46,537 nt of DNA from Candidatus Aenigmatarchaeota archaeon (lineage in GTDB: Archaea; Aenigmatarchaeota; Aenigmatarchaeia; Aenigmatarchaeales; JACQIB01), in contig JBHIDR010000003.1 in the NCBI GenBank assembly GCA_046760225.1, positions 1 through 46,537 on the forward strand, given 5' to 3'. The position numbers were made by a program. Below are positions 24,001-27,000 of this stretch, piece after piece. Each line of letters starts with the position of its first letter. Position 1 is the first letter of the stretch.

Positions 24001-27000
24001 AGATTGAGAACGTTGGCACGTCGGCAATAAAGGACGCCACTCTTTCCCTCATGCTGGGCAAAAAGGAAAAGAAAATAGAGATTGGACAAATGAACATCAG
24101 CGGCTCAACAGAAATTTCAGAGACATTCTCACTTGAAGGATATTCTCCTGGCTCCTTTAGCATAGTTGCAGTGCTGATTGGTAACGGCATCAACCTTGAC
24201 ACAGAGACAAGGGAGTTTGAGGTTGCTGTGATTGACAACATTGACATAGAAAGGGACGTGTCAAGCTTCCTTTTCGGGAGCACAATAAAGCTGGTAGCAA
24301 CCAACAAGGGCAACACAGAGAAAGAAGCAGGAATATCATCATCTGTCTCCCAGTACTTCTGGGTGGTTTACTCGGGCCCGCAGCCAGATGAAAGGGGCGC
24401 TGAATGGGTCTGGAAGAGAACACTGAAACCTGGCGAGTCTGCAGAAGTAAAGTACAGCGAATTCATATGGCCGATACCAGTCATAATGATTATCCTAGTA
24501 ATTGCAATCTTATTCAGCTACCTGCAGGCAACAGCGCTTGCTGTGAAGAAGAGGATGTTCAGGACAATGGACGAGTATGCAATGTCAATCCTGATAAAGA
24601 ACAGGGGTGCAGAGGCGCACAATGTTCTTGTAAGGGACGTCATACCCCCTACCTTCAATCTCTCAGGCAAGTTCGAGACACTGAAGCCTGTTGCAAAGAA
24701 GACCGGCTTTGGCACAGAGCTTTTCTGGAAAATAGGAAGGGTAAGGAAGGGAGAAGAGATGATACTCCACTACAGGATAAAGCCTGTGAGCAGGATAAGG
24801 GGCACAATGCAGCTGCCTGCTGCCAGTGTGAAGGCAAAGAGAGGGGACAAGACGCTGTTCGTTTATTCAGGCAAGCCAGTAATAACAGGTGCACACGGGC
24901 CCAAGCCAAAACTCAAGGTAAAGACCGAGTAGATTTAAATAATCTACAGCACCAATTTCTTGATATCCCGCGATGGCTTAGTCTGGTAGAGCGACCGGCT
25001 GTGCGGTGAGAAAGCATGACGACACTAAAACCTATAATAGAACAACAAGGTACAGTTTCAGAAGCAAAGGCTAGAATATTGGCGAACCTCAAGGCTGATG
25101 GAAGTACATGCAGAAGCGGTACGAACTATACAAAAAAATATGAGGTACGTGATGCCGAGCAACTTAATAGGTTTGCCAAAGACCTGAAACATGTATATGG
25201 GCTGAACATAAAGCGCATGCTTAACACATCAGGAATAACAGGAATGCCCATAGAAGCTGTATACCTTAGGTCCAAATTAGCATTTGAAGATTTGCAGAAA
25301 TTTGGACGCTTCAGGTCAGAAGACTGGAATGTACCTCAGCAGATAAAAAACTCTTCCAAGCAAGTTAAGGCCGCCTTTTTAATGGCCTTTTTTGATGACG
25401 AAGGATCTGTTATCAAATCGAGAAGGGAAATACGCCTTTACTCGATAAATATTGATGGCCTTAATGAAATAGCAAAGCTGCTTGAAGAGTTTGAAATAAA
25501 GTGCAGTATACGAAGTGGTTATGGAAAACGAAGAAATGTGTTTGCCATTATAATTCGTGGCGTAGAAAACCTTGAGAGGTTTTCAAAACATATAGGTTTT
25601 GGTGTTAAGACTAAAAAAAGAAAACTAAAAAGTATGCTTTCCACTGTGGCCAAAGGCGAGCACGCTAAGTGCTTGTTGCGTTAGCACTCGCTCGGAAACC
25701 GGTAGATCGGGAGTTCGAATCTCCCTCGCGGGACCATTTGTGATTTTTATGTCCAGTATGCGAGAGCTCAGGAAGGTCTATATGCAGAACAGGAGGCAGA
25801 TAAGGAATTTTTTGGAATCAACCAAAAATAAGAATGATGGTTTCCTGCTGCAGGAGATGTTCTTCTGCATGCTCACTTCCCAGACAAAGGCAGCCAACTG
25901 CCGTGCTTCTGTTGACAGGCTGAAGGGATGCAGGGACCTCTTTGAAGCGAACATGGAAGAAATAAGGAACTCCCTTGCTGGTGTGAGGTTCGCTGACAGG
26001 AAGGCACAGTACCTTTTCAAGGCAAGGCAAAAGCTGCCCAGGATAAAGGAGAACCTTTCCCTTTCGCCATTCGAGCAAAGGGAATGGCTGGTCGATAATG
26101 TGAAGGGAATGGGCATGAAACTGGCTTCACACTATCTGAGGAACATAGGGGTGTTTGGCCTGGCTATACTTGACGTCCATGTGCAGAGGTTCATGCAGGA
26201 AAACTGGAAGTTCCGGGGAGAAGTGGGCAAGCTGAACAGGAAGCAGTACCTTGAGAACGAGAAGGAGTTCTTCAGGCTAGCGAAAAAGCTTAAAATGAGG
26301 CCGGAGGAGCTTGACATAGCAATATGGATGCTGGGCAACAGGAGCGGCAATTTCTACGGTTAACTTTAAATACCTTTGAGAAAGTAATAATCATTGGTCG
26401 CGGTCAAAACGGAGTGGCAAGATCCGTTCCCGTTCCGAAACATCCTTCAGAGAAGCTGCACCTTACCTGGAGGGTGAGGAAACACGGTAATGAATCGCTC
26501 CAGTGATCTGGACTGTACTGTGGAAAACATGGGAAATCCAGGACGCTGCGACCATAACTTTTTATTCTACCAAAATAATAGAATTTCATGGCAAAGAGAA
26601 GAAAACAAAGGAAAGTAAGCAAAAGGCAAGTCATGAGGGAACTTGCCATTGGTCTCATTATTTTAGTATCTGTGATCATACTTGCCATAAGTGCTTTTTC
26701 TGATATAATCGATCTCGTGATTATAGTGGGACTTATTATTCTTGCAATCATCATAGCAACAATATTTGCAGGAAAGGGTTCACTTGATTAGAAAAAGTAT
26801 TTAAACTGTTACTGCTCATTTCTTAAGTATGCCCGGGTAGTATGTCTTGGTGTGGCATTTCACCCGAGAGCTAAAAGTGGTCTAGTATCTCGGCCTGTCG
26901 AGTCGAGGACCTGGGTTCAAATCCCAGCCCGGGCGCCACACCAACCCCTTTATAAACCTTGATATTCTATGGGTTGTTAGGACATTTTGGAAGTTCGAAA

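Follow-up and report, generated by a model that had tools for sequence, protein, structure and literature searches.

The intron-borne LAGLIDADG homing endonuclease I-DmoI comes from the 23S rRNA intron of Desulfurococcus mobilis. For archaeal tRNA genes, mobility is described for the transposing introns of the Thermoproteales (Fujishima et al. 2010, as covered by reviews), which occupy noncanonical sites and are mobile at the DNA level, with no enzyme known for this movement in the available text of two 2014 reviews (PMC4090602, PMC4033280). In the same text, the mechanism by which noncanonical archaeal tRNA introns spread is called unknown, and snapshots of insertion events are called for. 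A 2023 meeting report linked homing endonucleases to rRNA introns only, and our literature search found no published archaeal tRNA intron of the bulge-helix-bulge (BHB) type with a homing endonuclease. Two introns in one tRNA loop are described for the pre-tRNA-Pro(GGG) of ARMAN-2; according to the excerpt available, these introns are short, ORF-free, and six bases apart in the T loop (53/54 and 59/60), and the splicing endonuclease of this organism accepts noncanonical sites (Fujishima et al. 2011, PMC3239211).

The window analysed here is a 46,537-nucleotide stretch of a contig of a Candidatus Aenigmatarchaeota archaeon. It probably contains a working tRNA-Tyr gene of this small DPANN-type archaeon, syntenic with that of its genus mate, in which two BHB introns lie two bases apart in the anticodon loop: intron A, mobile and endonuclease bearing, and intron B, which is old. 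With introns allowed, ARAGORN placed a tRNA-Tyr(gta) of 77 nt, with a 7-bp acceptor stem and a 693-nt insert, at 24967 to 25736; without the intron option, it called no tRNA across the window. Together with the ORF and its Pfam match, this bears out the initial annotation of a Tyr-type tRNA gene split in the anticodon loop by an insert with a LAGLIDADG gene. The tRNA covariance model gave just a weak, sub-cutoff match to the 3' half of the gene.

The pair C1-G72 and the base A73 are the determinants of archaeal tRNA-Tyr. Both are present here along with a short variable loop, all cloverleaf stems are perfectly paired, and CCA is kept. This is the only C1-G72/A73 tRNA gene in the assembly, which is 83% complete, and a separate, ordinary tRNA-His gene with G-1 and C73 is located elsewhere in the genome. 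The anticodon GUA arises under the two-intron model or ARAGORN's model alone. Relatives were reached via the neighbouring Ogg gene because a pattern of the 3' exon, with up to three mismatches allowed, matched none of the order's 41 other genomes. The tRNA-Tyr genes of the genus mate (G033) and of genome G029 also adjoin Ogg, and that of the genus mate has a 41-nt ORF-free intron, as had been reported earlier. The octamer upstream of the gene (Table 1) recurs at equal distance upstream of both of these tRNA-Tyr genes and is likely, from its sequence and position, an archaeal TATA element.

Table 1. Features of the interrupted tRNA-Tyr gene and its endonuclease gene, in contig positions
Feature	Position	Strand	Description
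TATA-like box TTTAAATA	24934..24941	+	25 nt 5' of the tRNA start; read from the sequence, with a putative promoter role
tRNA-Tyr exon 1	24967..25002	+	Positions 1-35: acceptor strand CCCGCGA, D arm, anticodon-stem 5' strand ACCGG, C32 U33 G34 U35
Intron A	25003..25653	+	651 nt; BHB intron at the noncanonical site 35/36; carries the endonuclease gene
GGUGAG	25005..25010	+	Shine-Dalgarno-like, 5 nt 5' of the ATG; doubles as the 5' strand of the intron A inner helix
LAGLIDADG homing endonuclease gene	25016..25684	+	222 aa; one chain with two motifs; Pfam LAGLIDADG_3, 7e-13
Micro-exon A36 G37	25654..25655	+	Third anticodon base and position 37; directly 3' of the 3' bulge of intron A
Intron B	25656..25697	+	42 nt; ancestral canonical intron at 37/38, relaxed BHB
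tRNA-Tyr exon 3	25698..25736	+	A38, anticodon-stem 3' strand CCGGU, variable loop, T arm, acceptor strand UCGCGGG, A73, encoded CCA

A BHB was taken as a 4-bp helix with two 3-nt bulges on opposite strands and a cut after the second base of each bulge, or as an accepted relaxed form of this motif. Both introns have the relaxed form. At intron A, the central helix joins G30-U33 (24997-25000) to GGCC (25648-25651) with all four bases paired. The bulges are GU/G on the 5' side and AA/A on the 3' side (the slash marks the cut), the outer helix has 2 bp, and the inner helix of 5 bp joins 25004-25008 to 25642-25646 and leaves out U25647. This base remains unpaired between the inner and central helices, so that the motif is not strict; in the minimum-energy fold, there is instead a 2-nt 5' bulge.

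The intron A site was compared with 6 other endonuclease-bearing and 16 short-intron tRNA-Tyr genes of DPANN archaea. In the seven endonuclease-bearing genes, the two bases that follow the shared CTGT differ (GC, GT, TA, GA, TA, TG, and TG), and the sequence match to the tRNA-Tyr gene of another organism that lacks the endonuclease gene ends exactly at 25002. With the 5' cut held after U35, a 35/36 BHB site was present in all of the endonuclease-bearing genes with 3' data, a small set (n = 6) in which L118, L119, and L126 are close kin; L053 has the same site. Every one of the 22 genes with a 35/36 insert (16 short, 6 with the endonuclease) has a fully paired central helix, a 5' bulge GU/N, and a 3' bulge NN/A followed by G, with no two of their inner helices alike in sequence. 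L044 and L124, which have AG right after U35, showed no 35/36-type BHB site in this fixed-cut scan. Among 5000 shuffles of the window, the full intron A motif occurred in 55 and the minimal motif (central helix 4/4, AG, outer helix of at least 2 bp) in 1267. Since the minimal motif is this common in shuffled sequence, its weight comes from its conservation in relatives.

The reading frame across TGGCCAAAGGCGAGCAC, the sequence around the micro-exon, differs between the window and the trio L118, L119, and L126, indicating that this sequence is conserved as RNA. Another candidate for the micro-exon was the AG within the conserved TAG at 25683-25684. It was dropped because the TAG also lies inside the introns of genes without the endonuclease gene and because the scan found the GGCC-AA/AG site in L118, L119, and L126. 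The central helix of intron B has three of four positions paired (C32-G25695, U33.G25694, and G34-C25693, the second being a G.U pair, with a mismatch at U35.U25692), its bulges are AG/G and AA/A38, and its inner helix joins GCGAG (25656-25660) to CUCGC (25687-25691). The intron is 1 nt longer than that of the genus mate, and a gene of another organism that lacks the endonuclease gene has an intron of about 40 nt whose 3' end is homologous to that of intron B. The initial annotation had described a single 693-nt intron at 37/38, with the endonuclease ORF invading an older short intron; the old intron of 42 nt instead persists, and the endonuclease gene lies in a separate BHB intron at 35/36.

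Removal of both introns in silico yielded a tRNA-Tyr(gta) according to ARAGORN, with the same anticodon loop as that of the genus mate. The two-intron splice gave the loop CUGUAG(A/C) in all 21 genes run and CUGUAGA in the 5 endonuclease-bearing genes run, a set that does not include L053; in the L045 row of this test, the wrong 3' stem was picked. The anticodon, which had been left open between GUG and GUA, would thus be GUA under the two-intron reading of these sequences. No tested precedent for a 2-base exon between two BHB introns was found in the literature.

The minimum-energy fold of the window junction construct was the intron A fold, at -49.2 kcal/mol, versus -44.7 kcal/mol when the anticodon stem was forced. 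In this fold, UCGCUC (25688-25693) can pair with tRNA positions 22-27 (24989-24994) and close the structure. The same closing helix is paired at six of six positions in 11 of the 16 short-intron genes, with compensatory changes. Forcing the intron A fold cost 1.2 to 2 kcal/mol relative to the minimum in L118, L119, and L126; for L118, the forced fold also lay 0.4 kcal/mol above the stem-forced one. The long introns were considered as possible hosts of a C/D-box guide RNA. This idea was set aside, as the box D consensus was missing by eye and the complementarity to tRNA 22-27 is better accounted for by the closing helix. One further BHB that is strong in the window, cut after U33 and after 25686, would give a senseless product, and L126 does not retain the inner helix.

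The host genome encodes RtcB (1.4e-149) and, side by side, two EndA paralogs that both have the full pair of Pfam domains. Heterotetrameric EndA cleaves relaxed and noncanonical motifs, according to the available portions of two papers (PMC3239211, PMC5829648). We infer that splicing would proceed in a fixed order. The precursor would first adopt the alternative fold, in which tRNA positions 30-33 pair with GGCC of intron A and positions 22-27 pair with UCGCUC of intron B. The host splicing endonuclease would then cleave after U35 and before A36, and RtcB would ligate the ends. The RNA could then refold to the cloverleaf, whereupon the 37/38 motif would form and intron B would be excised. The expected product has the loop CUGUAGA and the anticodon GUA.

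Two readings treat the 693 nt as one intron. If the cuts fell after C37 (25004) and before A38 (25698), the product would carry the anticodon GUG followed by C37. The helix-bulge-helix-bulge-helix motif described earlier for these ends does exist, with an anticodon stem and outer helix of 5 bp, a central helix of CUGU with UCGG paired at three of four positions, bulges GC/G and AA/A, and an inner helix of 5 bp formed by GUGAG with CUCGC. It is a competing fold, however, that would mis-splice; its paired strands are the outermost intron ends, the 5' end of A and the 3' end of B. In a simple count, it ties with the intron A site, and it is the minimum-energy fold of a shorter junction construct that excludes the GGCC site; mis-splicing to GUG is therefore conceivable. 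As the regular path, these cuts are very unlikely. The resulting tRNA would have Tyr identity and read His codons, while a normal tRNA-His exists. The bases that would become 36 and 37 vary freely, and GUA is obtained in none of the seven endonuclease-bearing genes. When the GGCC site was included, the stem-forced fold was 4.5 kcal/mol worse than the intron A fold, and in the unspliced L118 and L126 sequences, only one of the four bases before the TC/A38 bulge pairs with C32-U35. The fold is accordingly missing in these two relatives, and none of their top-scoring BHB sites has this cut. In ARAGORN's model, each cut lies two bases further upstream, the first following U35 and the second preceding AAA. 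The loop is then CUGUAAA, and the rule gives the expected anticodon GUA in the window, L119, and L045. This placement gives GUU in L118 and L126, where the three bases before the stem are TCA. It has no BHB, as strict geometry provides G-C, G.U, C.C, and U.G and neither an outer nor an inner helix; these cuts were absent from the best-scoring BHB sites. The placement also leaves the conserved GGCC-AA/AG site unexplained. A single intron with these cuts is thus highly improbable as well.

The tRNA-Tyr gene might instead have been disabled by the insertion and be decaying, with another copy in the unassembled 17% of the genome. The incompleteness of the assembly leaves room for such a copy, and decay does occur in this class: L053 has a frameshift in its ORF, and L045 has no recognisable T arm or acceptor. 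In the window gene, the tRNA stems are perfectly paired, CCA is retained, and the place is syntenic; the assembly yielded no other C1-G72/A73 gene. Moreover, the acceptor stems of L118, L119, and L126 are distinguished by compensating changes despite the introns being kept. The ORF and both BHB sites are intact, and gene decay, a worry raised at the outset, is judged unlikely. A disabled gene is accordingly an unlikely explanation of the locus. Finally, the insert could be a self-splicing (group I or group II) intron. In bacteria and organelles, tRNA anticodon loops can hold group I introns that carry endonuclease genes, according to the excerpt available of one study (PMC3984707), and archaea do have group I introns, all 39 of which are in rRNA genes in the part of the survey consulted (PMC6125680). 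At gathering thresholds, Rfam reported no intron family in the window, one tRNA being the sole family to reach threshold, and the noncoding sequence amounts to 13 nt on either side of the ORF, far below the size of a ribozyme core. A self-splicing intron here is extremely unlikely. The two-intron BHB reading is therefore preferred below.

Under the two-intron reading, the endonuclease gene runs across the micro-exon. Residues 1-212 and two bases of codon 213 are located within intron A, and the third base of codon 213 is A36; codon 214 starts with G37, and codons 214-222 and the stop extend into intron B. If intron A were circularised, the encoded form would be 214 aa long. The GGUGAG upstream of the start codon may be ribosome binding, judging from its sequence, and relatives have a purine-rich GGTRG or GGAGG at the equivalent place. 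In the minimum-energy fold, both GGUGAG and the start codon are paired. The predicted protein, if translated, would contain two motifs in one chain, ending in ARILANLKADGS and AAFLMAFFDDEGS. Among 27 family members, D28 and D128 are invariant, and E129 is found in at least 90%; which residue is catalytic is our assumption from what is known of I-DmoI. The AlphaFold2 model had a pLDDT of 91.8 and a pTM of 0.88, with low confidence just in the tail from about residue 211, and the order alpha-beta-beta-alpha-beta-beta-alpha appears twice in it. Foldseek matched the model to the TliVMA intein endonuclease (3e-13), PI-PfuI, and I-DmoI (4e-9), the I-DmoI chains with a target-normalised TM score of 0.71 to 0.76 at 12 to 15% sequence identity. 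The fold search was clearer than phmmer against solved structures, which gave only weak matches (3e-4) to intein endonucleases. The model suggests an I-DmoI-like, single-chain LAGLIDADG homing endonuclease with predicted cleavage activity. With its conserved acidic residues, confident model, and resemblance to I-DmoI, the enzyme looks intact.

Of the order's 41 other genomes, 25 had relatives of the ORF (E <= 1e-3), which replaces an earlier count of 14. None of 30 fetched relative loci lies inside a tRNA according to ARAGORN, in agreement with the smaller set fetched before, and one of them lies in 23S rRNA. The endonuclease family is located in or beside Tyr-type tRNA genes at 27 of 29 loci, 7 loci have the endonuclease intron at 35/36, and five intron-resident endonucleases form a clade with support of 99/93. 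The genus mate G033 and G029 have neither intron A nor a close homolog of the endonuclease. Contigs of another organism join the exons, as had been noted, but in four sequencing runs rather than three; they match to 25002, continue with 25 other letters starting with AG, and match again from 25681. No presence/absence polymorphism was seen in four DNA runs, and no intron-less form of this organism's gene was found in them. A look-up of RNA runs that contain the stretch listed none. The organism is represented in hydrothermal-vent samples.

The site is empty in some relatives and occupied in others, and a single endonuclease clade is found in different hosts; this sequence pattern points to a mobile (homing) intron. 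The endonuclease would cut tRNA-Tyr genes without intron A. Intron A, along with the first part of intron B, would then spread by repair from an intron-bearing copy. It is possible, and we propose it tentatively, that homing endonucleases drive intron gain in archaeal tRNA genes: they would home into the tRNA-Tyr anticodon, lose the ORF, and leave short 35/36 introns such as those of the 16 DPANN genes, and many noncanonical introns could be stumps of this kind. If so, the window would represent a live stage of a gain and loss cycle.

The endonuclease-bearing tRNA-Tyr intron may thus show how archaeal tRNA introns spread. Its stages can be seen side by side, from the empty 35/36 position of the genus mate, through the endonuclease intron of the window and six other loci and the decaying L053 and L045, to short ORF-less introns elsewhere. 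One protein and a few synthetic tRNA genes would suffice for a direct test of homing-driven intron gain. The overlap of the ORF with the 2-base exon and the second intron also means that the C terminus of the protein and the anticodon of the tRNA share bases. For annotation, single-intron models labelled the Tyr orthologs of other genomes as His, Asn, Asp, Phe, or Ala, and a two-intron rule with a micro-exon corrects these miscalls.

Compared with known systems, the locus resembles the I-DmoI intron in that an archaeal BHB intron spliced by proteins carries a gene for a monomeric LAGLIDADG protein with two motifs. It differs in that the host is a tRNA gene, the site at 35/36 is within the anticodon, a second intron adjoins, and the ORF ends in this neighbouring intron. 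The pre-tRNA-Pro(GGG) of ARMAN-2 (Micrarchaeota), as described in the available part of PMC3239211, likewise has two BHB introns in one 7-base loop of a DPANN-type host, whereas in the window the loop is that of the anticodon, the introns are separated by two bases, and one of them holds a 222-codon gene. Unlike the introns of the Thermoproteales, intron A has its own candidate mobility enzyme. In the bacterial tRNA group I introns, as far as the accessible text of PMC3984707 goes, a mobile intron that encodes an endonuclease likewise occupies the anticodon loop; those introns are self-splicing ribozymes, whereas the window has BHB junctions, no Rfam match to an intron, and no room for a core. 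The free-standing LAGLIDADG cassettes beside DPANN tRNA genes (L038-L054 and L120-L127) belong to the same family, with 41 to 50% identity and a Tyr-type target. In those cassettes, the gene follows or abuts a tRNA that is complete, and is itself followed in 4 of 13 cases by a second copy of the tRNA 3' end (ungapped test), whereas the gene of the window lies inside an intron.

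ARAGORN found no tRNA in the window in default mode and, with introns allowed, a 77-nt tRNA-Tyr(gta) with an intron of 693 nt. The exons, read from the sequence, formed a perfect cloverleaf. Its acceptor stem is CCCGCGA/UCGCGGG, with A73 as the discriminator and CCA encoded; the D arm contains G18 G19, the anticodon stem is ACCGG/CCGGU, the variable loop has 5 nt and the T arm is GGGAG-UUCGAAU-CUCCC. C1-G72 together with A73 is the established identity set of archaeal tyrosine tRNA. The same genome encodes tRNA-His in an ordinary gene of its own, with G-1 and C73. Apart from one spurious match, the window's gene was the only one with a C1-G72/A73 acceptor and T arm in the assembly (851 kb, 83 contigs, 83% complete). 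A further Rfam tRNA match in the window (31.1 bits) was barely above the cut-off and was missed by ARAGORN with and without introns.

Through the neighbouring Ogg glycosylase gene, syntenic loci were reached in the genus mate (G033) and in a further genome (G029); both carry a tRNA-Tyr that reads CTGT-AG, an intron of 41 to 44 nt and then A38. The box TTTAAATA lies upstream of tRNA-Tyr in both and in the window. The initial annotation had reported an ORF-free 41-nt intron in the genus mate, which was confirmed, and contigs of a different organism joining the two exons with about 40 nt between, which were also seen, albeit in four DNA runs and not three, all of one study from which this DNA probably comes. 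These contigs matched the window through 25002 (U35), continued with 25 non-matching letters starting with AG and matched again from 25681, with 4 differences. Thus, U35 is exactly where the homology to genes without the endonuclease stops, and the window retains the 3' end of the short intron of those genes.

Six fetched loci (L045, L053, L117, L118, L119, and L126) have the window's architecture. Their 5' half ends in CTGT, followed by 12-15 nt that include a purine-rich stretch (GGTRG or GGAGG) and then ATG. The two bases after CTGT in the seven genes, including the window's, are GC, GT, TA, GA, TA, TG, and TG, indicating that they are not the A36 and R37 that tyrosine tRNAs conserve. In the relatives the exons are intact, and the acceptor stems carry compensating changes (CCCTGGA/TCCAGGG, CCCCAGA/TCTGGGG, and CCCAACT/AGTTGGG). 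Judged by sequence, the endonuclease-bearing tRNA-Tyr genes are functional, and exon 1 has to end at U35. Stages of decay exist, since the L053 ORF is frameshifted and neither the T arm nor the acceptor can be recognised in L045. L118 (in the D loop) and L053 have an extra D-loop insert of about 30 nt in tRNA-Tyr, which would be a third intron.

Bulge-helix-bulge (BHB) sites were scanned for in each gene with strict geometry (on each strand, 4 pairs and then a 3-base bulge that is cut after base two), and the 5' cut was fixed after U35. The window's gene quite probably contains two introns, intron A at 35/36 and intron B at 37/38, around a micro-exon of A36 and G37. The intron A site of L118, L119, and L126 is CCT-GGCC-AA↓A-G-GCGAGCAC (the arrow marks the cut), 649 nt past U35, and the intron A site is likewise present in L045 and L053. 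The 3' half of intron B is homologous to that of the introns of the genus mate and the other organism. Its motif has the central helix C32-G25695, U33.G, G34-C25693, U35.U, the bulges AG↓G and AA↓A38 and the inner helix GCGAG/CUCGC. Joined in silico, the three exons were called tRNA-Tyr(gta) by ARAGORN, with the loop CUGUAGA, that of the genus mate. The two-intron rule gave CUGUAG(A/C) in 21 of 21 genes tested, in a run that picked the 3' stem of L045 wrongly.

Positions of the proposed tRNA-Tyr parts and of other features in the window
Feature	Position	Length	Description
tRNA-Tyr gene	24967-25736		ARAGORN, introns allowed
Exon 1	24967-25002		tRNA 1-35
Intron A	25003-25653	651 nt	at 35/36
Intron A site	25648-25655		GGCC pairs with G30-U33; bulge A25652 A25653↓A25654; then G25655
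Micro-exon	25654-25655	2 nt	A36 G37
Intron B	25656-25697	42 nt	at 37/38; 41 nt in the genus mate, about 40 nt in the other organism
Exon 3	25698-25736		A38 to CCA
Endonuclease ORF	25016-25684	222 codons	Pfam LAGLIDADG_3, 7e-13
Rfam tRNA match	26862-26935 (+)		31.1 bits
Further LAGLIDADG match	45010-45573 (-)		
Further LAGLIDADG match	20375-20863 (+)		

The endonuclease-bearing tRNA intron is real, but its anatomy differs from that of the initial annotation, which had placed one 693-nt intron at 37/38 and left the anticodon open between GUG and GUA. The motif described there is present: the anticodon stem, the central helix C32-G, U33.G, G34-C, U35.U, the bulges GC↓G and AA↓A38 and the inner helix GUGAG/CUCGC. 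Its canonical cut, made in silico, gives G36 and C37 and therefore the anticodon GUG. The ARAGORN cut two bases earlier does give GUA, but without any BHB geometry in support. Removal of introns A and B instead of a single intron gives GUA, as called by ARAGORN on the in silico product. The ORF had been thought to have invaded the old short intron; on the two-intron reading, intron B, of genus-mate length, persists separately from intron A. In the single-intron fold, GUGAG at the 5' end of intron A takes the place of GCGAG at that of intron B in pairing with CUCGC, and this fold would be a competitor that skips the micro-exon.

A minimal site (4/4, AG, two outer pairs) occurred in 1267 of 5000 shuffles of the window's own intron, and one with a five-pair inner helix in 55 of 5000. 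Taken alone, a minimal site proves little, and the weight lies in conservation. The window shares TGGCCAAAGGCGAGCAC with L118, L119, and L126. This string translates as V-A-K-G-E-H in the window and, in another frame, as W-P-K-A-S-T in the other three; its conservation is that of RNA and not of protein. In a two-strand fold of the window's junction regions including the GGCC site, the intron A fold was the minimum (-49.2 kcal/mol), closed by GAGCGA (tRNA 22-27) with UCGCUC (25688-25693), and forcing the anticodon stem changed the energy by +4.5 kcal/mol. Forced into the intron A fold, L119 and L126 came out 1.2 to 2 kcal/mol higher than their minimum and still lower than with the stem forced; for L118, the gap to the minimum was 2 kcal/mol, and the forced intron A fold exceeded the stem-forced one by 0.4.

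Sixteen of 18 genes with the endonuclease outside the tRNA had as their best site a short hairpin intron of 16-32 nt at 35/36, whose terminal RGYY pairs 4/4 with G30-U33 and is followed by the bulge AR↓A and G. A36 and G37 follow this intron and precede one of 43-58 nt at 37/38. These sixteen are among L038-L042, L046-L052, L054, L120, L121, L125, and L127, mostly from MAGs labelled Woesearchaeota or Nanoarchaeota. AG directly follows U35 in L044 and L124, where the same scan found no 35/36 site. Every one of the 22 genes with a 35/36 insert has a 4/4 central helix, and their inner helices are all unlike in sequence (e.g., CGGTG/CACTG, AGGT/ACCT, GGAATGGAGGA/TCCTCCATTCC, and AGACT/AGTCT). The closing helix of the short-intron genes with tRNA 22-27 starts two bases past AG, has 6/6 pairs in 11 of 16 and shows G-C to A-U and C-G to U-A exchanges. 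Since ARAGORN accepts no more than a single intron, it wrongly labelled the short-insert genes His, Asn, Asp, Ala, Phe, or Gly. Inserts in the T arm or variable region occur in L038, L046, and L048.

The motifs of introns A and B share bases 28-33 and so cannot form together. The precursor would first adopt the alternative fold and lose intron A; the RNA would then refold to the cloverleaf and lose intron B. The host has two adjacent EndA paralogs, 46% identical and each with both Pfam domains; a histidine-bearing stretch is present in one and absent from the other. Two such unlike subunits suggest the heterotetrameric type, which, in the parts of PMC3239211 and PMC5829648 consulted, cuts relaxed motifs at non-canonical sites. 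An RtcB gene is present (contig C35, 1477-2834); it matches in two pieces, with 2 TAG codons inside the match of the N-terminal piece, and may be interrupted or frameshifted.

A protein search with the endonuclease gave a 61-member family of about 205-220 residues, with identity down to 43%; the few named members come from MAGs labelled Aenigmatarchaeota and Woesearchaeota. In an alignment of 27 members, D28 and D128 do not vary, and at least 90% of the sequences have E129. The structure model (pLDDT 91.8) matched intein endonuclease domains, PI-PfuI and I-DmoI in Foldseek, and was uncertain only in the last dozen residues, which are those encoded by the micro-exon and intron B. The start codon and the GGUGAG that precedes it are paired in the precursor fold. 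Circularised intron A (25652-25653 to 25003-25009) would end the ORF at a UGA two codons past the junction (V-A-K-R-stop), and the 214-residue product would lose only the low-confidence tail; this circle-closed frame is not conserved in L118, L119, and L126. Of the two further LAGLIDADG matches in the window (12 in the genome), one is 36% identical and lies in a 315-codon open frame, and the other lies within a 1017-codon frame and is probably an intein.

A Tyr-type tRNA was found in or right beside the ORF in 27 of 29 loci at ≥41% identity from the genome and metagenome collections, the remaining two loci ending 154 and 73 nt upstream of the ORF. The genus mate has no homolog. Relatives in other genomes of the order showed ≤48% local identity (≤38% for matches longer than about 60 residues), and none of the 30 loci fetched from the order lay in a tRNA, in agreement with the initial annotation. 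One of these loci (L016, G027:C39) is within a gene for 23S rRNA, where such LAGLIDADG genes are classically found. In a maximum-likelihood tree of 27 family members, five window-type intron-resident proteins formed a clade (99/93), and the L045 protein grouped with two genes of the flank type, in which the ORF lies after a complete tRNA-Tyr or points toward it. In 4 of 13 flank-type loci (L038, L044, L046, and L121), part of the tRNA 3' end occurs a second time after the ORF stop, over 11-24 nt in an ungapped test. This arrangement looks like a cassette inserted in the T arm and carrying a replacement 3' end. Distant LAGLIDADG relatives are found in CPR/Patescibacteria (L062-L116), with identities that are mostly 23-31% for long matches and reach 41% for short ones. 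In 35 of the 55 bacterial loci, the relative is located about 250 nt downstream of a tRNA-Lys(UUU) gene that has no interruption, and this pairing is conserved in these bacteria.

Archaeal BHB introns with LAGLIDADG genes are textbook knowledge for rRNA genes. The literature covered (PMC4090602, PMC4033280, PMC6125680, and PMC10714607 included) yielded no BHB intron of an archaeal tRNA that encodes a homing endonuclease, nor any intron at 35/36 or tRNA exon of two bases, a scope that leaves most subscription journals outside and does not prove absence. Neither of the two 2014 reviews, PMC4090602 and PMC4033280, uses the word "homing". Two introns in one tRNA loop have a counterpart in the tRNA-Pro of ARMAN-2, as described in the part of PMC3239211 consulted.
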